From contig JBAZTH010000002.1 in assembly GCA_041661965.1 (NCBI GenBank), positions 1 to 64,000 of the forward strand: DNA of 64,000 nt. The letters run 5' to 3'. Below the pieces are notes generated by a model, which had not been told where the DNA came from, did not search any database, and saw only the letters and a program-made list of their open reading frames with translations. This document shows, piece by piece, positions 3,875-18,090 of this stretch. This DNA is from Candidatus Margulisiibacteriota bacterium. Its GTDB lineage: Bacteria > Margulisbacteria > WOR-1 > O2-12-FULL-45-9 > XYB2-FULL-48-7. How positions within the stretch are numbered: the first letter of the stretch is position 1; each line of letters begins with the position of its first letter. The position numbers and the translations under genes are program-made.

Positions 3875-3947
<73 letters not shown>

Positions 3948-3955
3948 AACCTTGG

Positions 3956-4029
3956 GGGCCCGTAGCTCAGTTGGATAGAGCAACGGATTTCTAATCCGTA
4001 GGTCGGAGGTTCGATCCCTCTCGGGCCCG
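3956..4029 (+). tRNA. tRNA-Arg (anticodon TCT)
   Basis: Acceptor GGGCCCG/CGGGCCC, anticodon stem ACGGA/TCCGT with loop TTTCTAA, T-loop TTCGATC. Confidence 0.9.
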
Positions 4030-4043
4030 TTTCCTATCCACAA

Positions 4044-4125
4044 GGGCGAGTGGTGGAACTGGCAGACACGCATGGCTTAGGACCATGTGCCGTAAGGCTT
4101 GGAGGTTCAAATCCTCTCTCGCCCA
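4044..4125 (+). tRNA. tRNA-Leu (anticodon TAG), class II with long variable arm
   Basis: Acceptor GGGCGAG/CTCGCCC, anticodon loop CTTAGGA, variable stem-loop GCC-GTAA-GGC, T-loop TTCAAAT. Confidence 0.85.
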
Positions 4126-4130
4126 TTTGA

Positions 4131-4215
4131 ATTATCGAGGCAGACACCCGGTTCTGCGCCGAAGGCGCATCCGCCTTTGGCGGAAACTCCTGTCCTCGGC
4201 ATATCCGTCTAGGTT
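4131..4215 (+). other. Structured intergenic element of three nested hairpins between tRNA-Leu and tRNA-Lys; unknown (tRNA remnant or small RNA?)
   Basis: CGAGGCAG...CTGTCCTCG outer pairing, GCGCC-GAA-GGCGC and CCGCC-TTTG-GCGG inner hairpins. No canonical cloverleaf. Confidence 0.2.
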
Positions 4216-4219
4216 TTAA

Positions 4220-5721
<1,502 letters not shown>

Positions 5722-6788: not shown

Positions 6789-6950
6789 TATTGTATTCCG
6801 ATAGCGTCGATGCCGCCTCCGGCCCGCTGCGCGACCCTGCGGCGGAAGGGGATTTTTCGGCCGATCATAATAATAGGGCGGCTTGTCGGCAACATTCGTC
6901 GCCTCCAAGCCGCCCAACATCAGCGATGGTTCGCTGTAAAGGGAAAATGC
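6789..6950. repeat. IR-R: right copy of the perfect 162-bp inverted repeat
   Basis: Reverse complement of 4290-4451. Confidence 0.9.
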
Positions 6951-7092
6951 CTCGACCCTCTGGCTCTCAAACCATTCAGTGCCGCGCTAGCCAGCTGATT
7001 ATACCCAGCCCATTCATGGATGCCTTTGTCTTCTTCCCTCCCATAGCGGGCGCGTACATTCAGCCCCATTCAGATAGATGCGCGCCCGCTAT
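6951..7092 (-). promoter_or_regulatory. Cassette copy A: inverted promoter+leader (-10 TATAAT at 7003..6998, -35 AGGCAT at 7025..7020, minus strand) fused to a 12-bp-stem hairpin (7043-7092) upstream of parB-like gene 1
   Basis: Homologous to 12276-12460 and 17972-18090. The leader ends ...GGGTCGAGGCA exactly at the IR-R boundary. The hairpin is ATAGCGGGCGCG-N25-CGCGCCCGCTAT. Confidence 0.55.
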
Positions 7093-7165
7093 CGCCAGAA
7101 TATACTATAAAAACAATAAAATAGTTGTATAATAACTGTTAATTGTTATGCTTAGGAGGTCAACC

Positions 7166-8167
7166 ATGAAATACGACAGATTGCCCATCTCACAAATAGA
7201 ACTGGACAAAACAAACCCACGAATCGCACACTGGCTCAAGATGTACACCGATGTATCGCAAGAACAATTATATTTAGCCCTGGGCGTTGCAGAGCCCGGG
7301 AGTGCAGAGGCTGGCCCAAGTTTTTTCAGCTTAAAAGAAGCTATTAAAACAAATAATGGCGTTATTCATCCTATATTAGTGAATAAAAAAAGTAATGGGA
7401 AATATATGGTGATTGAAGGCAATACAAGATTAGCAATTTACATGGATTTTCAAAAAAATAAAGTGGATGGCGACTGGACAACAATACCTTGCATTATTCA
7501 TGAAAATTTAAGTGAGGCCCAAGTTGATGCAATAAGGCTACAAGCGCATTTAGTTGGTGTTCGTCAATGGCAACCATACGCAAAAGCAAGATACCTTAAA
7601 CATTTAAGGGATAGCGAGCATCTTACTTGGAATCAAGTTGTTGACTATTGTGGGGGAAAATCAAAGGAAAACCAAGAGTTGATCGCGGCATACGAAGACA
7701 TGGAGCAATATTACAGAAAAGTACTTGAAGACGATAGTTCATTTGACGAAACAAGATTTAGCGCTTTCGTTGAGCTACAGAAGCCAAGAATAAAGGAAGC
7801 AATTATTAATTCTGGAAACAACCTTAATGATTTTTCTATATGGGTCCGTGACAGGAAAATATCGAGGTTGGAAAACGTCAGGAGGCTCCCCGCAATATTG
7901 TCAGATAAACGAGCAAAAGAACTATTTATGACTAGAGGGGACAAAGCGGCCCTAGCGCTTATCGATTCGGCAATAATTCAAACCGACCAAAGCAGCCTGT
8001 CCTTGATACAGGTTGCCAAACTGCTTTCTGAGAAACTTAGGAAAATTAACTTCGAGGAAATCACAAGGTACAAAGAAGACGCATCCTCCCCTGAATTGGA
8101 AGCATTGCTAGAAACGAAAGATGAGCTGATCTCCTTTTCCAATTTAATCAAGGGGAGTGAGCAATAA
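7166..8167 (+). CDS. ParB/Srx-like N-terminal-domain protein (ParB-like nuclease/NTPase fold), copy 1
   Basis: IHPILVNKK...VIEGNTRLAIY matches the ParB/sulfiredoxin core (GxxR). RBS TAGGAGGT before ATG 7166. First gene of a 5-gene overlapping operon. Confidence 0.55.
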   Translation: MKYDRLPISQIELDKTNPRIAHWLKMYTDVSQEQLYLALGVAEPGSAEAGPSFFSLKEAIKTNNGVIHPILVNKKSNGKYMVIEGNTRLAIYMDFQKNKVDGDWTTIPCIIHENLSEAQVDAIRLQAHLVGVRQWQPYAKARYLKHLRDSEHLTWNQVVDYCGGKSKENQELIAAYEDMEQYYRKVLEDDSSFDETRFSAFVELQKPRIKEAIINSGNNLNDFSIWVRDRKISRLENVRRLPAILSDKRAKELFMTRGDKAALALIDSAIIQTDQSSLSLIQVAKLLSEKLRKINFEEITRYKEDASSPELEALLETKDELISFSNLIKGSEQ

Positions 8168-8579
8168 TTTGCCCGAATCGACTACGCATAAAACGCTGGT
8201 TGGCGCAATCGTAAAATGGGTACACAAATACTACAATGAAGAAATGATCTTATACGTCGATTCCGAAAACGCAATGTTCACCGACGAGCTCCCTCCCTCA
8301 ATAAACACTTGCAAGCCGGATGTATTTGCTCAAGGAAGAAAAAGTAAAAATATTGTTATTGGCGAAGCGAAAACAACCCAAATAGACCTGGAGTCCGATC
8401 ATTCAGAAATTCAATTTACCGCCTATTTAGAATACTGCAAAAAGAACAGCGATTGCAAATTGGTAGTTGCAACCCCGCTTAATATAATTAATTGCGCAAA
8501 ATCAATAATCGATGTGTTGAAGAAAAAGCTGCATTGTGAACAAGTCCACACAGAAATGATTAACCCATTATATTATTAA
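8157..8579 (+). CDS. Small PD-(D/E)xK-like nuclease-fold protein (140 aa)
   Basis: CKPDVF...NIVIGEAKT fits the PD-(D/E)xK core motif. GTG start overlaps the parB1 stop, suggesting translational coupling. Confidence 0.4.
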   Translation: MSNNLPESTTHKTLVGAIVKWVHKYYNEEMILYVDSENAMFTDELPPSINTCKPDVFAQGRKSKNIVIGEAKTTQIDLESDHSEIQFTAYLEYCKKNSDCKLVVATPLNIINCAKSIIDVLKKKLHCEQVHTEMINPLYY

Positions 8580-8582
8580 TTT

Positions 8583-10055
8583 ATGCAAATAATAAACCTT
8601 GACAAGGAGCCCAATATTAATCCAAAGTTCAAGGCTTTCCCATACCAAGATCAGGCCGTTAAGACCGTTTGCGACCTAGAATATGCTGCAATATTTCACG
8701 AACAAGGCCTTGGAAAATCAAAAATTGCAATTGATGTAATGCTCTATTGGCTAGAACATAAATACGTAGACACTGTATTATTTGTAGTCAAAAAGGGATT
8801 AATAAGCAATTGGCAAAAAGAGTTTTCTGCGCACAGCCATATTCGACCAAGATTAATCACTCAAAACAAAAGATCAAATTATTTCGCTTTTAATAGCCCT
8901 TCTCGCCTTATGATTACTCACTACGAAGCGATAAAAACAGAAAAAGAAAGATTTAAGTTGTTTCTCAAAACAAGGACCGTGGCCGTTATCCTGGACGAGT
9001 CAACAAAGATAAAAAATCACAAATCTGGAGTATCGAAAGCGCTATTCGAACTAGCCCCATTATTTCATAAAAGAATAATAATGACAGGACTGCCTGTGGC
9101 AAATCGACCATATGATATTTGGTCGCAAATATATTTTCTAGATCGTGGGATGAGTTTGGGAGATGCCTTTGATGAATTTAAGGCAAATACTGACCTTGAT
9201 AAGGGGTTAAAAGACTCTAAGAAGAGACAAGGGGCGTTCGAAGACTACTTATCCGATATTTTTAATAAAATATCAGGGTTTACCGTAAGAGAAACGAAAA
9301 GCAGTGGCGTCATTAAATTACCAGATAAAATATTTGAAAACATTATTACTTCTTGGGAGCCAAAACAATATGATTTGTATAGGGATATACGCGACAGCAT
9401 GAAGGCTATTGTGGTGAAGGAAGGCATCCCCCAAGAAGAAGACGCCGAGATGATCTTGAAAAGGTTATTACGATTGATTCAAATCGCATCCAACCCAAAA
9501 CTAGTAGACGAAAAATACTCAGAAGAGCCTGGTAAATGCCCATATTTATACGAGCTTGTTTTAAATATATGTCGGAAAAATGAAAAATGCATTGTATGGA
9601 CAACTTTTACTGAAAATGCTGACCAGTTATTTGTTTATCTCAAGGAATTTAACCCAAGAAAAGTGCACGGGAAAATGCCTATTGTCGATCGAAATTGCTC
9701 TATTGATGAATTTATTAAAGAGAAAGACGTGAAGGTGTTGATAGCCACCCCCGGAGCGGCTAAGGAGGGCTTAACATTAACGGTCGCGAATCATGCGATC
9801 TTTTATGATAGGTCCTTCAGCTTAGATGATTATTCTCAGGCCCAAGATAGAATCCATAGAATATCGCAAACAAAAAAGTGCTACGTGTACAATCTGATCA
9901 TGGAAGACTCTGTGGATTTATGGATAGATGCATTATTGCGGGCAAAAGAACTATCGGCAAAACTAACCCATGGAGATATATCGAAAGAATATTTTAGCAG
10001 CCAAATATCATATTCATTTATTGATATCTTCAAGGAAGCTCTGAACATTAAATAA
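8583..10055 (+). CDS. SNF2-family helicase (compact, 490 aa)
   Basis: Motifs: I GLGKSK, II ILDEST, III MTGLPVANRPYDIWSQIYFLD, VI QAQDRIHRISQTK. Confidence 0.85.
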   Translation: MQIINLDKEPNINPKFKAFPYQDQAVKTVCDLEYAAIFHEQGLGKSKIAIDVMLYWLEHKYVDTVLFVVKKGLISNWQKEFSAHSHIRPRLITQNKRSNYFAFNSPSRLMITHYEAIKTEKERFKLFLKTRTVAVILDESTKIKNHKSGVSKALFELAPLFHKRIIMTGLPVANRPYDIWSQIYFLDRGMSLGDAFDEFKANTDLDKGLKDSKKRQGAFEDYLSDIFNKISGFTVRETKSSGVIKLPDKIFENIITSWEPKQYDLYRDIRDSMKAIVVKEGIPQEEDAEMILKRLLRLIQIASNPKLVDEKYSEEPGKCPYLYELVLNICRKNEKCIVWTTFTENADQLFVYLKEFNPRKVHGKMPIVDRNCSIDEFIKEKDVKVLIATPGAAKEGLTLTVANHAIFYDRSFSLDDYSQAQDRIHRISQTKKCYVYNLIMEDSVDLWIDALLRAKELSAKLTHGDISKEYFSSQISYSFIDIFKEALNIK

Positions 10056-10069
10056 CAGGGGGGCTGGTC

Positions 10070-11071
10070 ATGAAAAAAGATGTTTTTACAAAAGACTATA
10101 TAACAATCAGTGGAAAAGAGATAGAAGTTGAATCTGGGTTCATCAATCATGAAAAGCTTAAATATTACGCGGATAATCCTAGGATATATTCGATTATATA
10201 TGCGGGAGAAAAATCGCTTAGCCAAAACGAAATAGAAGAAAGGCTATCCGACAAAGAACATGTTCGTTTATTGATTCAATCGATAAAGGCAAATGGAGGG
10301 TTGACCGACCCCATTATTGTCAGAGGTGGGGACTTTGTTGTGTTAGAAGGAAATAGCCGATTAGCTGCTTATAGAACTTTATCAAAAAAGGACCCTATCC
10401 AGTGGGGAAAGATAAAATGCAAGATTCTCCCTCATGATATAAGTAACGATCTGGTGTTCACCCTTTTAGGCGAATATCATATAATTGGGAGAAAGGATTG
10501 GCAGCCATATGAACAGGCTGGCTATCTATATAGAAGGCATAAGCTTCAAAAGGTCTCCTTAGAGAAGATACAGCACGAATTAGGCTTAAAGAAAAGCGAA
10601 ATGGAACATCTCGTTGAAGTATATGAGTTTATGTTTACCCACAACGACACAGACATAAATCATTGGAGTTATTATGAGGAATATCTTAAATCAAGAGACA
10701 TTAGCAGGGCAAGAGAAACACATAGTGATTTCGATCATTCAATTGTTTGTAAGATCAAAGTCGGCGAAATCACTAAAGCCATAGATATCAGAGATAAATT
10801 AGTCCCCATTTCAAAATCAACCCCCAAAATAATAAAAGGATTCATTTCTGGCAAAATCAAATTTGAGGATGCTTACGAGAGAGCATATGCCGGGGGTGCT
10901 GGGAATGCGGTGTTTGAAAAATTGCATAGATTCCGAGAGTGGCTAGCTAATTCAAGTATCGAAGAGGATATTATTGATAATGGGGATCAGCTAGTTAAAA
11001 AGTGCATATTTGAGCTCGGAAAGATTAGTAAGCGCTCGGACGATATTCTGAATAAAATTAATAAGACATGA
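10070..11071 (+). CDS. ParB/Srx-like N-terminal-domain protein, copy 2
   Basis: DPIIVRGGDFVVLEGNSRLAAYRT is a ParB-like core. A paralog of 7166-8167 (shared EGN(T/S)RLA motif). Confidence 0.55.
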   Translation: MKKDVFTKDYITISGKEIEVESGFINHEKLKYYADNPRIYSIIYAGEKSLSQNEIEERLSDKEHVRLLIQSIKANGGLTDPIIVRGGDFVVLEGNSRLAAYRTLSKKDPIQWGKIKCKILPHDISNDLVFTLLGEYHIIGRKDWQPYEQAGYLYRRHKLQKVSLEKIQHELGLKKSEMEHLVEVYEFMFTHNDTDINHWSYYEEYLKSRDISRARETHSDFDHSIVCKIKVGEITKAIDIRDKLVPISKSTPKIIKGFISGKIKFEDAYERAYAGGAGNAVFEKLHRFREWLANSSIEEDIIDNGDQLVKKCIFELGKISKRSDDILNKINKT

Positions 11072-12171
11072 CAAAGAAAAAAATATTGTTAGTTGAGCCA
11101 AATTTCCCAATACCCGCCAAGAGTAAAAATCATAGGGACTTTTTACCAATCGGGCTACTTAAGCTCGCGAGCTATCATAGGGATAAGGGAGATGTCATTA
11201 AGTTAGTTAGGGGTAATCAATATTTTGATGATTTTTATCCGAATCAGATAAAAATTACATCTTTATTTACGTATTGGTCAAAATATGTATGGGAAAGCGT
11301 CAAATATTATAAAGAGACCTATCCAAAGGCAAAAGTTATTGTTGGCGGCATCTATGCGTCCTTAATGCCGGAACACTGCAAGCAATCGGGATGCGATGAA
11401 GTATTTATTGGGGTAAATGAAAAGGTTGAGAAATTTCGCCCAGCTTATGAACTAGTTAACGTCGATTATCAAATTATTCATACTTCACGGGGCTGTCTGA
11501 GACGATGTGCGTTTTGTGGAACTTGGAGGATAGAGCCCCGCTTCACTCATAAAAAGAGTATTAAAGACGAGATATGTAGTAATCGAATTATATTCTATGA
11601 TAACAATTTATTGGGAAACCCCTTTATTAAAGATATTTTAAAAGAACTAATGAATGCGAAGCATAATGGAAGAGTGGTGTATTCTGAGAGCCAGTGCGGA
11701 ATTGATGGGAGATTGCTTACCCCAGAAATAGCAAAGATGCTTAAACAGGCCAGGTTTATTAACCCTAGAATTGCATGGGACCATGGTTATAATCAATGGA
11801 AGCTAATTAAGAAGCAGATCAAAATGCTTGTTGCTGCTGGATATCCGGCAAAAGATATCTATGTGTTTATGCTTTACAATCACGAGCATGATTATCGTGA
11901 GATGCTAACAAAGATAAGACGATGTAAGAGTTGGGGAGTGCAAATATCTGATTGTAGATATCGCCCATTAGACCAAATCTCTGAAAGTTATTACCCCCGG
12001 AGGGAACAGACCAGCGAAGAATATTATATACATCCTAAATGGACAGACAAACAAATAAAAATGTTTCGAAGAAGCGTTAGAAGGCAGAATATTGAAGTAC
12101 GACATGGTTTCTCCCATTACAGCGAAGAACTTGAACGCTTGGGAAAGAATAGTTCAAAAATCACAGCTTAA
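11068..12171 (+). CDS. Radical SAM enzyme with an N-terminal B12-binding-like domain
   Basis: CLRRCAFCG gives the Cx3Cx2C radical-SAM cluster motif. The N-terminal ~130 aa (LLVEPNFPIPAK...LPIGLLKLASY...VIVGG) resemble a cobalamin-binding Rossmann domain. Start overlaps the parB2 stop (ATGA). Confidence 0.75.
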   Translation: MTKKKILLVEPNFPIPAKSKNHRDFLPIGLLKLASYHRDKGDVIKLVRGNQYFDDFYPNQIKITSLFTYWSKYVWESVKYYKETYPKAKVIVGGIYASLMPEHCKQSGCDEVFIGVNEKVEKFRPAYELVNVDYQIIHTSRGCLRRCAFCGTWRIEPRFTHKKSIKDEICSNRIIFYDNNLLGNPFIKDILKELMNAKHNGRVVYSESQCGIDGRLLTPEIAKMLKQARFINPRIAWDHGYNQWKLIKKQIKMLVAAGYPAKDIYVFMLYNHEHDYREMLTKIRRCKSWGVQISDCRYRPLDQISESYYPRREQTSEEYYIHPKWTDKQIKMFRRSVRRQNIEVRHGFSHYSEELERLGKNSSKITA

Positions 12172-12199
12172 AAGCGCCCCTTGTATGGGCATATATCAA

Positions 12200-12460
12200 G
12201 AAGCGGTTTTTTCGACGTATGGGGGAGAAAAAACCGCTTCTTTGACAAGCTCACATCCTGTGTAGGTCTTTTTTCTTGCATCCATGAATGGTGTTGGGTA
12301 TAATCAGAGTGATTGCCCGGCACTGAATGGTTTGAGAGCCAGAGGGTCGAGGCAATTCTCTCTCTTCTATTGCCGATGGCCTTTAGCCTTCGCCCCACCC
12401 CTCTCCCTCCCCAGCGGGCACGAACATTCAAGCCCCATTCAGATAGATGCGCGCCCGCTG
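12200..12460 (+). promoter_or_regulatory. Cassette copy B: hairpin (12200-12240), TTGACA (12242-12247), near-consensus sigma70 promoter (TTGCAT 12276-12281, 17 bp, TATAAT 12299-12304), ~50-nt leader ending GGGTCGAGGCA (12354), hairpin 12412-12460
   Basis: All elements read directly. Homologous to copies A and C. Sits ~115 bp upstream of the 1233-aa helicase gene. Confidence 0.6.
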
Positions 12461-12573: not shown

Positions 12574-15500
12574 ATGACAATCTCTAATCTACAATTTCAT
12601 AGTAAGACATTGAGACACTCCTCTAACCCCAACGATTACGCCCTATACCGAGCAGCACTTGAATGGGACTTAATGGAGCCCATTGTAATCGAAAATCGTG
12701 AAGATATAAGGTCAGAAACTAAATGGCATGACCGGCTCGAACCCTATCACCATCAAGTCACCAATTTAATGACATTTTGTCGCCGACTCCCAGTAACATT
12801 GCTTGCTGACGATGTTGGGTTAGGAAAAACCATAAGTGCCGGCCTGGTAATGAGCGAATTAATATCTCGCGGGAGAATATCTAAAATACTAATCGTTTGC
12901 CCAAAGCTACTAATGCCTCAATGGCGAGAAGAACTCGACCTAAAATTCGGAATCCCTTCAATTGAAGCTGTCGGAAGCAAACTTGTTAAAGCTAAACCCC
13001 CAGACGACGCTGGGGCAGTTATAACAACTTACCATTCAGCGCGTTTACATTTTGACGCACTTGCCAAAGTTGGATATGAAATGCTTATCCTTGATGAAGC
13101 ACATAAACTTCGTAATCTATATGGAGTAGATCCTACTCCTCAAGTCGCGTTGCGTTTTCGAAAAGCATTAGCAGATAGACTGTTTAAATATGTTCTTATG
13201 CTTACTGCCACCCCTATTCACAATAGGCTTTGGGACCTTTATTCATTAATTGATTTATTAACCGTCGCTCGTGGGCACGAGAATCCGTTTGGAAGCGAAG
13301 GCATTTTTGCCAGGAAATATATTGCTGATGGTCGCACTCAAGCAAGACAGTTAAAGGTTGAAAGGAAAGACGAATTCCGCTCTATTGTTTATAGTTACAT
13401 GTCTAGAGTAAGGCGCGCAGATGCAAAGCTATATTTTCCGGAAAGGGTCGTTGAGCTTCATAAAGTTGATCCGACCAAAGAAGAACTTGAATTAATAGAT
13501 ATTATTGCTAAACCAATACAAAAGCTTAACCGACTTGCTCAAATCTCTATTCTTCAGGCATTAATAAGCAGTCCCCATGCTTTAGCGGCCCAATTAAATA
13601 CAATGGCTCGTAAGGGGACAGTATCAGAGTTACTAGCCAAAGCCGTACAAGCAGTTGTTGATCGGATGCCGATAACTGCTAAATTAAACGGCCTAAATGT
13701 CTTAGTTGAAAAACTTAGAAAAGAACAGCCCGAGCATTGGCGAATGATTGTATTTACTTGTCGCAGAGAGACACAAATAACAATCCAAGATTTCCTTGAA
13801 TCTCGGGGAATATCATGCGGTCTAATAAACGGGGAATCAGGCCCACGAAATCAAACTACCATTGCTAAATTAAAAACGATTCCTCCAGAAATACATGTAA
13901 TTATTTCCACCGAAGCCGGCTCTGAAGGCGTTAATTTACAAGCAGCTAATGTGTTAATCAATTATGATTTACCCTGGAATCCGATGATCGTTGAGCAACG
14001 AATAGGACGAATTCAGAGGCTAGCCTCGAAGCATGCAAGCGTATGCATTTTTAATATTATATTACAAGGCACTTTTGAGGAATATATTGTTGGAAGACTC
14101 ATGGAAAAGCTGCAGCTGGCCGCACATGCCATTGGAGATGTAGAAGCCTTATTAGAAGCCTCCAATTTAGATGATAATGAAGAGGATGTCTCTACCAGTT
14201 TTGAGGAAAAAATCCGGCGCCTTGTTATAGCCTCTTTGGCCGGAAAAGACGTTGAGCTTGAAGCACGTTCAGCTGCTAATAGTATTGCTGAAGCGAAAAA
14301 AGAATTAGAGCGAGAAGAAAACAATATAAATTCATTGTTAGGCGGAATGGACGACGAATTTTCTGGGCCTAGATGCCCGAGGTTGCCTCGTCAAACGCAA
14401 TCAATGGATGCCCGCAATTTTGTATTGTCCGCCTTGGCTTCTCAAGGGATGCGATTGTCTCCTATTTCAAATGGATTATATTCGGCCGAATCTGGGAGAG
14501 AAAAAGAAGTAATTCGTTTTGATCACAACGAAGTAATAGGAGTAAGAAGTACTTTATATGCGCCGGGATCATCCTCCTTTGAACGTTTAGTAAGCGGAAT
14601 CACGTATGATGGGTGGCATCGAGTCGAAGATATTGACACTAATCCGTTGAAAATAGCGGAAGAACTATGCGTTAACTGGGCGAATAGTTTTGGTAGCACA
14701 TATAAAACAGTAACTACCAAGGAAATAGTTCGTTGTTTTAACGGCACCGCACTAATGAGGGTTAGGGCAACTGTGGCTCATGATGGATATGAACGGCTCG
14801 TTGAAGTTGATTGTACCCCAAGTGAGCATTTTAGTGGCGCGTCTAAAAAATGGCTAGACCCAATAAATGAGATAATTGAAAATCCTACTTCTGTTGGTTT
14901 AATTACGGACAAATTAAATGAAAAGGCGATCTCTGATCCTAGCATCTCGGAATTTTGCCGATTCTACACCGAAAGAAGGACACAAGAAATGAATGCGGCA
15001 GGAGATGATGCTCGCAAAAGGAAGAAACTTGAGGATGATTTTACACCAAGACTGGAGTTATCGTTGGTGGGGCTTAATGGAAAGATGCATCGTAGATTAG
15101 TAATAGATGTGACTTATCAATTAGACCCGGGATTTGAGTATACAAGCATGCTGGCACTAACTCCGTCAACAGCCGAGATTAATAAGGGCCCCGATATGGA
15201 CAAGTGTATGAAGACGGGCCGAGTTGTCCCCCGCGACTGCCTGGACAAGTGCGTTATTAGCAATACTCGGGTGATGAAACACTTACTTACTCCATCAGAA
15301 CTGAGTGGCAGATTGGCCCTTCCTGAACATATTGTTATTTGTTCTTTAAGTAATAAACGAGTCTTAATCGATGAAGTTGAGAAATCAGCAATCACCGATC
15401 AATATGTTACTAAATCCTTGCTTAAAACGTCATCCATGAGCGGCAAAAGAGCGGAACCACAATTCTTCTCTAGATGTGAGTTTAGCAACTCTGAAGTTCT

Positions 15501-16275
15501 TGAGAATGAGATAGCAATTAGCCAAATATCTGGCAAACGCTATCGCATTGATGAGCAATTACACTCCGCAGTCTCAGGCAAAACCGGACATCGCGAAGAA
15601 TTCATTTATTGTTCGGAAACGGGTAAGCCCCTATTATCAGATGAAGCGGAAAGATGTGAAGTGACAGGAAAGACCGTTATGCCTGGGTTGCTTGAGAGAT
15701 GCGAAATAACAGGGAAGAAAGTATTAGCTTCGGAACTTGATAAAAGTGCAGTTACGGGCAAAAAGGCGCTAAAAAAATACTTTGTTCTAAGTAGCCTATC
15801 AGAAGCACATCTTCTTGAACAGGAAGCTATAAAATCTGTTGCGGGCAAATTTTGCTCCCCGTTAGAAGCTAAATCATGCTTCTGGAGTGGCCGTCAATGT
15901 CACCCCGATGATTTGCGTGTGTGTGAATTAACTGGCATACCAATATATTTTGAATTTGCATCAAATGGGGGGGCTGTTCAGCTCGAACCCTTAGTGAATC
16001 TTCTCAATGGGGTTAATAAAAAGGCAGATAAAGCTGATCTCTGGCAAACTATTGCAATAGAAGCCTCTAAGTTAGTTGGCGGGGGAAACTGTAAGGTCGA
16101 GGCGGCAGAGTTATCCCCAGATAAGCATTGTTTAGCCATTTCATTAGAAATCCGGACATGGCTAGGTTTTAAATTGAGACAAGCAGGATTATTATATTCT
16201 CTGGCAGACAACTCTGTGTCAGGCCGAGTAGTAATTGGCAAACGTGATAATAAAGGCTGGAGGTTTATAAGTTAA
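12574..16275 (+). CDS. Large SNF2-family helicase (1233 aa) with a ~650-aa C-terminal extension containing degenerate (S/T)GK repeats
   Basis: GLGKT (motif I), LILDEAHKLRN (II), LTATPIHNRLWDLYSLIDLL (III), QRIGRIQRLAS (VI). C-terminal repeats of ~15-17 aa (VSGKTGH, ETGKPLL, VTGKTVM, ITGKKVL, VTGKKAL, VAGKFCS). Confidence 0.85.
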   Translation: MTISNLQFHSKTLRHSSNPNDYALYRAALEWDLMEPIVIENREDIRSETKWHDRLEPYHHQVTNLMTFCRRLPVTLLADDVGLGKTISAGLVMSELISRGRISKILIVCPKLLMPQWREELDLKFGIPSIEAVGSKLVKAKPPDDAGAVITTYHSARLHFDALAKVGYEMLILDEAHKLRNLYGVDPTPQVALRFRKALADRLFKYVLMLTATPIHNRLWDLYSLIDLLTVARGHENPFGSEGIFARKYIADGRTQARQLKVERKDEFRSIVYSYMSRVRRADAKLYFPERVVELHKVDPTKEELELIDIIAKPIQKLNRLAQISILQALISSPHALAAQLNTMARKGTVSELLAKAVQAVVDRMPITAKLNGLNVLVEKLRKEQPEHWRMIVFTCRRETQITIQDFLESRGISCGLINGESGPRNQTTIAKLKTIPPEIHVIISTEAGSEGVNLQAANVLINYDLPWNPMIVEQRIGRIQRLASKHASVCIFNIILQGTFEEYIVGRLMEKLQLAAHAIGDVEALLEASNLDDNEEDVSTSFEEKIRRLVIASLAGKDVELEARSAANSIAEAKKELEREENNINSLLGGMDDEFSGPRCPRLPRQTQSMDARNFVLSALASQGMRLSPISNGLYSAESGREKEVIRFDHNEVIGVRSTLYAPGSSSFERLVSGITYDGWHRVEDIDTNPLKIAEELCVNWANSFGSTYKTVTTKEIVRCFNGTALMRVRATVAHDGYERLVEVDCTPSEHFSGASKKWLDPINEIIENPTSVGLITDKLNEKAISDPSISEFCRFYTERRTQEMNAAGDDARKRKKLEDDFTPRLELSLVGLNGKMHRRLVIDVTYQLDPGFEYTSMLALTPSTAEINKGPDMDKCMKTGRVVPRDCLDKCVISNTRVMKHLLTPSELSGRLALPEHIVICSLSNKRVLIDEVEKSAITDQYVTKSLLKTSSMSGKRAEPQFFSRCEFSNSEVLENEIAISQISGKRYRIDEQLHSAVSGKTGHREEFIYCSETGKPLLSDEAERCEVTGKTVMPGLLERCEITGKKVLASELDKSAVTGKKALKKYFVLSSLSEAHLLEQEAIKSVAGKFCSPLEAKSCFWSGRQCHPDDLRVCELTGIPIYFEFASNGGAVQLEPLVNLLNGVNKKADKADLWQTIAIEASKLVGGGNCKVEAAELSPDKHCLAISLEIRTWLGFKLRQAGLLYSLADNSVSGRVVIGKRDNKGWRFIS

Positions 16276-16277
16276 AC

Positions 16278-17825
16278 ATGAATGAGAATTATATTACGAA
16301 GACTAGATATCGAGAAGGGTTATTATGTCCAATATTACTGTGGCATAAGATTCACGAGCCAACAAAAGTTCCACAACCTGACCCTTTCGCAAGAATTAAA
16401 ATTGAAGGCGGGATTCAAGTCGGTATATTGGCAAGAAAATTATTTCCTGATGGCCTTCTTATCGAAAAAGAGACGTCGGCAATACTAACCCATGAAAAAT
16501 CGCTAAAAGCACTACAATTGCGAAAGCCATTATTTGAGGCAGGGTTTATCTATAATCATGCATATGCATTAGCAGACATATTAATCCCAGCAGAAGACAA
16601 CTCATGGGATTTACTCGAAGTAAAAGCAGAAAATTCGATTGATGAGAAAGATTATTGCTGTTTGAGTGAGAGCTTTAACCTTGATTGTGCTGACGTTGCA
16701 TTTCAGAAATATACATATACTAAAGCCGGCATAAATATTAGAAATTCTAATATCCTACATCTTAATAAGAAATACATTTATGATGGCAAAAAACTATTAT
16801 TAGAAAAGCTCTTTATTACCCCTGAAAAAGTGAATGACCCTAAAATCAAATTGATTGTACATGATGAGATTGATCGCCACCTCCCCCTTGTCGAAGCCAA
16901 TATAAATAAACTTGAGGAAATATTACAAAACAATGCTCGCCCTAAAACCATATTTAACAGAAATTGCAAGAAATGCGTATTGTACGACGAATGCTCCAAT
17001 ATCTTACCACCCGATCATGTTCTAATGCTAAGAAGGGATATGAAAGGCATTCGCTTCCAAATGCTGGAAAAGGGAATCACAAAATTATCAGACATCCCAA
17101 TAACTTCCGAGATAAAAGACCAAAAGATTGAACAAATTAATGCACATAAGACTGGAACAACATTAATTAAAACCAAGAATATTAGGGAATTTATAGACAA
17201 AATTGAATACCCCGCATATTTTCTAGATTTTGAAACAATTGACCCTGCCATCCCTATCTTTGAGAAAACACATTCATATCAAAAGATCCCATTCCAATAT
17301 TCATTGCATATAATAAAGAAGCACGGGGAAAAAGCAGAACATCATAGCTATTTAGCCAAAGGGGATGTTGATCCCAGGCCCGAATTATTGTCCCAGCTTA
17401 AAGCACTATTGGGCGATAGGGGCTCAATAATAACCTATAACGCTAAATTTGAAAGAGGTAGATTAAAAGAGGCGTCTGAAGACTTTCCAGAATATAGTGA
17501 TTGGTTTAATAATAATATTAATGGGCGCATAATTGATTTAGAAGAACCTTTCGATAAGTTCTTTTACTATGATCCCAAACAAAAAGGCAGTACATCTATT
17601 AAAGCTATTTTACCCGTATTAACTGATTGCAGCTATGAGGGGTTGGAAATATGCGAAGGGGGTACTGCCGCCGCTGAATATATTAGGGTTACTTTTAATA
17701 GTGTCGATGAAAAAGACAAAGAAAATGTTCGGAATCATCTGGAAATATATTGCAAGCAAGACACACAAGCTATGATAGATATACTGGAAAGATTAGAACA
17801 AATAGCCGCTGACAATACAAAATAA
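16278..17825 (+). CDS. DUF2779-like protein: Cas4/RecB-type PD-(D/E)xK nuclease region with Cys cluster plus C-terminal DnaQ-like exonuclease region
   Basis: CPILLWHK...CxxC cysteines and the YPAYFLDFETID motif (DEDD-like exonuclease) recalled from DUF2779 family members. 2 bp downstream of the helicase stop. Confidence 0.45.
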   Translation: MNENYITKTRYREGLLCPILLWHKIHEPTKVPQPDPFARIKIEGGIQVGILARKLFPDGLLIEKETSAILTHEKSLKALQLRKPLFEAGFIYNHAYALADILIPAEDNSWDLLEVKAENSIDEKDYCCLSESFNLDCADVAFQKYTYTKAGINIRNSNILHLNKKYIYDGKKLLLEKLFITPEKVNDPKIKLIVHDEIDRHLPLVEANINKLEEILQNNARPKTIFNRNCKKCVLYDECSNILPPDHVLMLRRDMKGIRFQMLEKGITKLSDIPITSEIKDQKIEQINAHKTGTTLIKTKNIREFIDKIEYPAYFLDFETIDPAIPIFEKTHSYQKIPFQYSLHIIKKHGEKAEHHSYLAKGDVDPRPELLSQLKALLGDRGSIITYNAKFERGRLKEASEDFPEYSDWFNNNINGRIIDLEEPFDKFFYYDPKQKGSTSIKAILPVLTDCSYEGLEICEGGTAAAEYIRVTFNSVDEKDKENVRNHLEIYCKQDTQAMIDILERLEQIAADNTK

Positions 17826-17905
17826 ACATCCAATATATAAGTAACTATATGCTGTCGTAATCTTTTCGGAGGAATTCAAATATAACATTAGTCGGCAAAT
17901 TAATA

Positions 17906-18090
17906 AGCAGTTTTTTCGACGCATGGGGGAGAAAAAAATGATTATTTGACAAATTATTGCCTATTCAGGTCTTTTTTTCATCCATGGTGTTGGGTATAAT
18001 CATTGAGATAGCCCCCGGCGCTGAATGGTCTGATGATCATCGGGTCGAGGCATTTTTCTCTTCTATCGCCTTCTGCCTTCGCCTTTAGCT
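17906..18090 (+). promoter_or_regulatory. Cassette copy C: degenerate version of B (TTGACA 17946-17951, TATAAT 17995-18000, weakened -35, leader to 18052), with no gene downstream
   Basis: Aligned by eye to copy B. Small deletions in the -35 region; the tail hairpin is absent. Confidence 0.5.

Follow-up and report, generated by a model that had tools for sequence, protein, structure and literature searches.

A predicted SNF2 translocase and DUF2779 nuclease pair on a low-G+C island of a Candidatus Margulisiibacteriota genome

Gene organization of the locus

The window analyzed here is the whole 64,000-nucleotide (nt) stretch at positions 1 to 64,000 of contig JBAZTH010000002.1 (GenBank assembly GCA_041661965.1), from a Candidatus Margulisiibacteriota bacterium, and the subject of this report is a two-gene operon within it (operon 2, 12574-17825), which encodes an SNF2-family translocase, referred to below as the helicase, and a two-domain nuclease of the DUF2779 family. 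A preliminary description of this DNA, made from the letters alone, had reported a two-gene unit with a 2-bp spacer and a helicase of 1233 amino acids (aa), and both open reading frames (ORFs) were recovered exactly as given. Read from the sequence, the junction of the two genes is TAA-AC-ATG, with a stop-to-start spacer of 2 nt. This short spacer, together with a GGAGG site inside the helicase gene, makes translational coupling of helicase and nuclease plausible. The features of the operon are listed below.

12574-16275, forward strand: helicase gene (SNF2-family translocase, 1233 aa, whole ORF), from the ORF list with an ATG start and Pfam matches to SNF2-rel_dom and Helicase_C
12790-14022, forward strand: SNF2 ATPase core, residues 73-483 (Walker A K85, DEAH 174-177, motif VI 475-482), from Pfam and motif positions
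14410-15165, forward strand: two family-specific alpha+beta domains with long beta-hairpins, residues ~613-864, from the AlphaFold (AF2) model
15205-15924, forward strand: 16 in-register 15-residue beta-hairpin repeats, residues 878-1117, from autocorrelation and the AF2 model
16033-16272, forward strand: C-terminal helix and five-strand beta domain, residues 1154-1233, from the AF2 model
16259-16263, forward strand: GGAGG ribosome-binding-like site for the nuclease gene, within the 3' end of the helicase gene and 14 nt before the nuclease ATG, read directly
16278-17825, forward strand: dual nuclease gene (DUF2779 family, 515 aa), from the ORF list with an ATG start, Pfam PF11074 (1e-39), and the AF2 model
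16278-17012, forward strand: Cas4/RecB-like PD-(D/E)XK domain with a four-Cys cluster (C17, C230, C233, C239) and D100, E114, and K116
17190-17813, forward strand: DEDDy-type 3'-5' exonuclease domain with D317, E319, E392, Y491, and D495

Helicase core and tail

The helicase has the properties expected of the SNF2 (Swi2/Snf2) superfamily. Both lobes scored above their Pfam thresholds, with SNF2-rel_dom (PF00176) covering residues 73-320 (1e-27, 97.3 bits; cut-off, 24.9) and Helicase_C (PF00271) covering residues 378-483 (3e-17, 63.5 bits; cut-off, 23.5), and motifs I (DDVGLGKT, 79-86, with K85), II (DEAH, 174-177), III (TATP, 211-214), and VI (QRIGRIQR, 475-482) are intact. The top PDB sequence matches of the core were the Sulfolobus Rad54-like protein 1z63 (3e-26) and RapA (5e-23). 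The top PADLOC profile matches were BrxHI (3e-55), DrmD (3e-50), and HmaA (1e-42), with DpdE and ZorD also present; all were confined to the core, and every curated NCBIfam score of the helicase was far below its cut-off.

The tail of ~710 aa that follows the core matched no Pfam model even at an E value of ≤5 and had no sequence relative in the PDB, and no recognizable nuclease was found in it. An AF2 model of the tail, built on 61 family sequences with a mean predicted local distance difference test score (pLDDT) of 84.5, starts with a helical linker, which is followed by two alpha+beta domains, a run of strand-turn-strand-helix units, and a terminal beta domain. Residues D686, D688, R731, D737, Y739, and E740 of the alpha+beta domains are invariant (positions 172, 174, 217, 223, 225, and 226 of the C-terminal piece). 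In the terminal beta domain, G, W, R, and Y residues are conserved, and an acidic catalytic set is not. The sole notable Foldseek match of the post-ATPase region was RapA (E value of 4e-3, probability of 0.98), with a template modeling score (TM-score) of ~0.16.

The repeat units in the tail are exactly 15 residues long without insertions or deletions, follow the consensus [CS]-x-h-[ST]-G-[KR]-x-[VAL]-L-x-x-E-h-x-x, and were each modeled as a strand, a turn, a second strand, and a short helix. The BLOSUM autocorrelation at a lag of 15 was 0.49 versus -0.88 ± 0.13 for 2000 shuffles (z of ~10.7), with harmonics at 30 and 45. The complete SNF2 core and repeat-bearing tail proposed in the preliminary description were thus borne out by Pfam, the motifs, and the 16 units. 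No tandem repeat was detectable in the array at the DNA level, which indicates that the units are old. Lys or Arg occupies position 6 in 10 of the 16 units, which possibly forms a nucleic-acid-binding stripe. A zinc-ribbon reading of the Cys-rich repeats was rejected, since Cys alternates with Ser at the same position, one per unit, which points to a structural ladder of small residues and makes a metal site unlikely. Among relatives, the arrays range from ~16 to 65 units and the proteins reach 2098 aa, the surplus consisting of more 15-residue units.

A nuclease with Cas4-like and DEDDy domains

The nuclease is a member of DUF2779, the model (PF11074) matching residues 314-440 over its full length at 1e-39 and 136.1 bits (cut-off, 23.3). 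Its AF2 model, built on 62 sequences, has a pLDDT of 93.9 and a predicted TM-score of 0.91, and its fold matches include Cas4, Dna2, AdnAB, MrfB, ExoI, and Pol III epsilon. The N-terminal half has the fold, the D...ExK triad, and the one N-terminal and three C-terminal Cys residues (the latter in a CxxCx5C motif at 230-239) of the Cas4-like iron-sulfur (Fe-S) PD-(D/E)XK nucleases, and its Pfam match to Cas4 is weak. The C-terminal half has the RNase H-like fold, four acidic residues, and Tyr of the DEDD 3'-5' exonuclease superfamily, with FLDFETID at residues 315-322. The expected active-site residues of both domains and the four Cys residues are invariant in all 62 sequences. The combination of a Cys-containing Cas4/RecB-like region with an FLDFETID exonuclease region, as first read from the sequence, therefore agrees with Pfam, the AF2 model, and the invariant residues, and published sequence analyses of DUF2779 concur with this reading of domains and active sites (PMC3985635; PMC13621843). 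The protein does not appear to be a CRISPR adaptation Cas4, with no cas genes found in the operon or the island.

Pairing of helicase and nuclease in other genomes

ORFs were called in 80 related loci, and the resulting 1370 proteins were clustered. The sole recurrent cluster beside the helicase, with ~30 members, consisted of PD-(D/E)XK plus DEDD nucleases and comprised two sister architectures, one Cas4-like plus DUF2779 and the other PD-(D/E)XK plus RNase_H_2 (PF13482, TM0106/COG2251 type). Three partners of the RNase_H_2/TM0106 type carry an additional superfamily 1 (SF1) helicase domain, which is a Dna2-like architecture. In a neighbor-joining tree of 75 helicases, the partnered helicases formed one clade, including that of the window, in which 22 of the 25 other members are partnered, and most helicases of the second large clade (Alphaproteobacteria, Nitrospirota, and others) have no partner. 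Within the partnered clade, the DUF2779 and TM0106 partner types are interleaved, and the gene order is helicase then nuclease in the subclade of Patescibacteria and the window and nuclease then helicase in that of Acidobacteriota. Adjacency in both orders and partner swapping are strong evidence of functional coupling. The three nearest relatives of the helicase (68, 61, and 59% identity) have a DUF2779 gene 8, -16, and 7 nt downstream, respectively. These loci thus uphold the view that helicase and nuclease function as a unit.

No second conserved partner was found among 135 flanking proteins with Pfam and PADLOC, the most frequent family having a count of 4. Some copies of the helicase gene have serine or tyrosine recombinases, HerA, OLD/GajA-like genes, a toxin-antitoxin pair, or large methyltransferases in their vicinity, and the few HerA, OLD/GajA-like, and mad8 matches among the 135 proteins come from a coarse census without a background. 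In four unrelated genomes (L050, L060, L072, and L079), an SbcD-like metallophosphoesterase of ~380-440 aa and an ORF of 1024-1257 aa lie at most two genes upstream of the helicase, with an OLD-like ATPase between the two in L050; this gene pair may be another nuclease partner or a neighboring defence system.

Origin of the nuclease in the window

The helicase-linked DUF2779 proteins form their own clade, mostly with mutual identities of 38-85% across phyla and with one outlier (L030) at 29-35%. The nuclease in the window shares 25-32% identity with this clade versus 42-53% with stand-alone DUF2779 proteins. Its four closest relatives (51-53%) are all stand-alone and lie in the oriC-proximal synteny dnaA-rnpA-yidC-jag-trmE-folD-(Dam)-DUF2779, and a fifth stand-alone relative lies among aminoacyl-tRNA synthetase genes. 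The two genes of the window also differ in G+C content (0.418 for the helicase versus 0.354 for the nuclease). The stand-alone affinity and this gap indicate that the usual dedicated partner appears, judging from sequence comparison, to have been replaced in the window's island by a member of the stand-alone clade. Refilling of the slot by an analogous enzyme argues for a functional requirement, so the replacement makes a need of the helicase for such a nuclease more credible and a purely defensive reading of the nuclease itself less so. In two of the four oriC-proximal loci (L089, 5760-6908; L090, 5811-6932) and not in the other two, a D12-class N6-adenine methyltransferase gene lies directly upstream of the DUF2779 gene on the opposite strand.

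Distribution of the helicase family

A search with the tail alone retrieved 778 proteins, and descriptions were taken from the best 120 of them. Among these 120, complete proteins were nearly all 1210-1245 aa long with 48-68% identity, the whole architecture was kept across phyla, and the named members belong to Patescibacteria, Elusimicrobia, and Terriglobia. An exhaustive profile search of 1.84 billion representatives (E ≤ 1e-30) gave 386 clusters, and all of the full-length representatives listed have an N-terminal region the size of an SNF2 core before the tail. With one genome per species, the family occurs in 119 of 185,579 species at ~50% identity, in many phyla that include Patescibacteria, Nitrospirota, Acidobacteriota, Planctomycetota, and Alpha-, Gamma-, and Deltaproteobacteria. 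The distribution is patchy and horizontally transferred. An origin from phages or plasmids was rejected, with no match in IMG/VR (2.9 million viral contigs), INPHARED (50,697 phages), or PLSDB (72,556 plasmids).

Six longer relatives (P0305, P0310, P0313, P0318, P0326, and P0353) have 190-340 extra residues before the SNF2 core, which may represent an additional domain or an incorrectly called start codon. A fused nuclease was rejected as the identity of this extension, since none of the six has an extra Pfam domain.

The island, operon 1, and border elements

The island has a G+C content of 0.35-0.43 versus ~0.55 in its flanks. Upstream of the pair lie four tRNA genes (Gly, Arg, Leu, and Lys; 3875-4292) and a large serine recombinase gene (4258-5721, reverse strand), and operon 1 (7148-12171) is placed between the recombinase and the helicase-nuclease pair. 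A tRNA gene occurs within ~10 kb of the helicase in 24 of 60 other loci, a figure without a background rate. An island-free allele, sought with the exact flanking SPFH protein, was not found, as this protein occurred only on contigs with the island. In two public assemblies, this region is interrupted at or close to border elements or repeats, so the physical linkage of the island to tRNA-Lys and the recombinase depends on the window's assembly. A perfect inverted repeat of 162 nt (4290-4451 and 6789-6950) has the recombinase gene between its arms. Its left arm, which directly adjoins the 3' end of tRNA-Lys(CTT), includes the last ~54 codons of the serine recombinase ORF. An ENA contig of the same region terminates at this repeat, which may delimit a segment capable of inversion or may result from misassembly. 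An NCBI entry identical to the nuclease is named 'MAG: DUF2779 domain-containing protein [Ignavibacteriaceae bacterium]' and comes from a contig that measures up to 573,782 nt, and sequences identical to the helicase were recorded in the ENA and Logan assemblies only.

Operon 1 contains five genes, encoding two ParB-N-like proteins with weak PADLOC matches to PDC-M38A and PD-Lambda-5_A, a 140-aa protein without a match, a 490-aa ZorD-like SNF2 ATPase, and a B12-binding/radical-SAM-like protein. The preliminary description had linked the pair to this operon. Such a link was not upheld by the co-occurrence analysis, in which tblastn found the four operon-1-specific proteins in 0 of the 80 related loci; the operon 1 SNF2 protein gave 16 matches, which are probably cross-matches to the shared core. 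The two operons are therefore independent modules on one island.

A border element of ~110-160 nt, called cassette B in the preliminary description, is present in three copies and only at operon borders.

6944-7020, reverse strand: border element copy 1, inverted, from sequence comparison
12195-12357, forward strand: upstream copy, with a hairpin (12201-12240), TATAAT (12299-12304), and a 37-nt conserved block (12318-12354)
17899-18056, forward strand: downstream copy, 78-85% identical

Operon 2 is thus flanked by direct copies. The element has a hairpin, a perfect TATAAT, and the 37-nt block, which is identical in two copies. A known RNA was rejected, as no Rfam match was obtained. The preliminary description had the pair driven by this element, but a sigma-70 scan called no promoter in it; the element may be a regulatory cassette that the operons share or a site of recombination. 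Each operon is also preceded by an exact 29-nt direct repeat distinct from the element (7062-7090 and 12431-12459).

Possible function of the pair

The two genes probably encode a functional translocase-nuclease pair, carried on what is taken to be a horizontally acquired island, and the coupling found in related genomes supports this well. In the mechanism considered most likely, the SNF2 protein would be an ATP-driven translocase on double-strand DNA, which would track along the DNA, clear bound proteins, and hand a DNA end to the nuclease through physical interaction. The tail may bind nucleic acid or a target and recruit the nuclease, whose two heads of opposite polarity would resect both strands, the Cas4/Dna2-like Fe-S head working 5'-3' and the DEDDy head 3'-5'.

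We tentatively suggest that the pair is a defence cargo that destroys incoming linear or foreign DNA, a reading that is the likeliest of those considered but falls a little short of being probable. It is made plausible by the low-G+C island, the adjacent recombinase, the patchy cross-phylum spread, the occasional defence and toxin-antitoxin neighbors, and the precedents for SNF2 proteins acting with nucleases. The defence role put forward earlier thus stays plausible, although the neighbors in other genomes are heterogeneous, with few defence genes and no conserved methyltransferase or toxin partner. Several results weigh against a defence role or against the mechanism as drawn. Helicases without an adjacent nuclease make up 45 of the 75 in the tree (~60%). 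The neighbors other than the nuclease are mostly ordinary genes, and no conserved methyltransferase, toxin, or other self/non-self partner emerged from the neighbor census. The helicase tracks its host in G+C content in most genomes (median difference, -0.012), with a value more than 0.03 below the host in 19 of 53 loci, and its sequence conservation is unusually high for a defence gene. No known defence model in PADLOC or NCBIfam covers the helicase or the nuclease apart from the SNF2 core common to many proteins. Because motors of the SNF2 type leave the two strands together, the mechanism does not explain how single-strand exonucleases would be fed. The oriC-proximal synteny of the nearest nuclease relatives points the same way, as does the finding that a DUF2779 protein (MMSYN1_0389) is quasi-essential in the minimal Mycoplasma JCVI-syn3.0 (PMC13621843).

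An accessory module for DNA repair and end resection, carried as island cargo, is a serious alternative, though a less likely one. The motor would clear nucleoid proteins or stalled complexes, and the nuclease would resect ends or excise lesions, on the model of MrfA-MrfB (a helicase plus a DEDDh exonuclease) or of Fun30 aiding Dna2 and Exo1. The stand-alone relatives in conserved synteny, the quasi-essential Mycoplasma homolog, a DUF2779 hit among growth-defective mutants of Mycoplasma bovis alongside replication and repair genes (PMC7373297), and the resemblance in fold to MrfB, Dna2, and the AdnAB nuclease would all fit this alternative, as would the host-like G+C content and strong conservation of the helicase, its absence from the phage and plasmid collections, and the lack of a toxin or modification partner. 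However, a helicase found in so few species scattered over phyla is unlike a core repair factor, the copy in the window lies on a low-G+C island beside a recombinase, the helicase-linked nucleases form a clade apart from the stand-alone one, and recombinases and some defence genes recur nearby. Clear orthology to a housekeeping repair pair with conserved synteny, named in the preliminary description as the finding that would speak against defence, was seen in part for the nuclease (four relatives, oriC-proximal) and for neither the helicase nor the pair.

Two other explanations are less likely. The pair may serve the mobile island itself, by processing its DNA in excision, transfer, or replication or by countering host restriction, without protecting the host. 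Consistent with such a role, a large serine recombinase gene is no more than a few genes away both in the window and in 13-14 of the 80 other loci, several Patescibacteria loci contain ParB-methyltransferase genes of a kind typical for mobile elements, and repeated border elements flank the operon. The role is nevertheless improbable given that most loci have no nearby recombinase, that the plasmid, phage, and viral collections yielded no member of the family, and that some copies are in stable synteny within genera. In the other explanation, which we consider very unlikely, the SNF2 protein would be a RapA-like transcription factor whose targets would be RNA polymerase or transcription complexes and to which the nuclease would be only loosely tied. 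RapA is among the best PDB sequence matches of the core and is the only notable structural match of the post-ATPase region, but the TM-scores are very low, the RapA model NF003426 gave 113.6 bits versus a cut-off of 576, only ~55 residues precede the core, which leaves no room for the N-terminal RNA-polymerase-binding domain of RapA, and the conserved nuclease partner would be unaccounted for.

A broader form of the defence reading, which is speculative and rather unlikely as a whole, is a widely distributed immune module, so far unrecognized and common in Patescibacteria and Acidobacteriota, in which an expandable solenoid (~16-65 units) would serve as a sensor or DNA-tracking arm and the translocase would recruit interchangeable Cas4 plus DEDD exonucleases, including DUF2779 proteins of the stand-alone clade, to destroy invading DNA. 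Helicases without an adjacent partner might work in trans with a DUF2779 or TM0106 nuclease that the cell encodes elsewhere.

Bacterial immunity and repair make repeated use of helicases paired with nucleases, and the present pair combines an SNF2 motor that has a structurally novel repeat tail of variable length with a dedicated DUF2779 clade and repeated partner swapping. Study of the pair would give a first function to DUF2779 and TM0106 and define what an SNF2 translocase contributes when bacterial exonucleases degrade DNA. Members of the helicase family are concentrated in the poorly studied Patescibacteria, Acidobacteriota, and Nitrospirota, in which few defence or repair systems have been characterized.

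Comparison with known systems

ZorD and DrmD are SNF2 proteins of defence systems, and DrmD and BrxHI were the best profile matches of the ATPase core. However, these matches span only residues ~55-650, with scores far below the cut-offs. The DrmD equivalog models of DISARM gave 196.8 bits versus 610 (NF038317) and 172.7 versus 950 (NF038318), and a DISARM operon was not recognized either, with only two genes here and no DrmA (DUF1998 helicase), DrmB (DUF3780), DrmC, or methyltransferase among the neighbors by Pfam and PADLOC. The BREX genes pglX, pglZ, and brxC are absent from the island. Zorya is also not indicated, with a score of 61.7 bits versus 1500 (NF041790) and no ZorA, ZorB, or ZorC among the island proteins scanned with PADLOC.

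The Hachiman and Nhi systems had been named earlier as examples of helicase-plus-nuclease architecture. The architectural analogy stands, but the motor is of the SNF2 type, with DrmD, BrxHI, RapA, and HmaA cores nearest to it, and no HamA, HamB, or Nhi was found among the best 25 of 48 PADLOC matches, with none for the nuclease. The preliminary description had also stated that this exact pairing was not a recognized one, which agrees with the lack of a PADLOC model and with the DUF2779 literature, in which no defence role is mentioned. The closest precedent for an SNF2 protein acting with a nuclease in defence is HmaA of the Hma system of Halomonas meridiana (PMC11232893). Like the present helicase, HmaA is a protein of ~1200 aa with an N-terminal SNF2 ATPase that works with a PD-(D/E)XK nuclease activity. 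However, the HmaA nuclease is fused at the C terminus, whereas here the nuclease is a protein of its own with two domains, which many loci of the family lack, and there are no HmaB/HmaC-like neighbors, so the pair is not assigned to Hma.

Among repair systems, MrfA-MrfB, which acts in mitomycin repair in Bacillus subtilis, is related to the present pair only through the fold of the nuclease (12% identity). Its helicase, MrfA, is of the DEXH/DUF1998 type and not an SNF2 protein, and MrfB contains TPR repeats but lacks a Cas4 domain. Dna2, AddB, AdnAB, and solo Cas4 proteins share with the nuclease the Cas4 fold, the D-ExK triad, and the four-Cys cluster, and some partner nucleases carry an SF1 helicase as in Dna2. 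In contrast to these proteins, the present nuclease is fused to a DEDDy domain, lies outside any CRISPR-cas locus, and is paired with an SNF2 instead of an SF1 motor. Stand-alone DUF2779 proteins, such as MMSYN1_0389, have the same Cas4 plus DEDD architecture and belong to the same Pfam family; they are single genes, some in conserved synteny, whereas the gene studied here is operonic with an SNF2 gene on a low-G+C island. The variable 15-residue solenoid tail, the dedicated DUF2779 clade, and partner swapping were not found in the literature or the profile libraries searched. The pair falls outside DISARM, BREX, Zorya, Hma, Hachiman/Nhi, and RapA; it is akin to the general class of helicase-nuclease modules.

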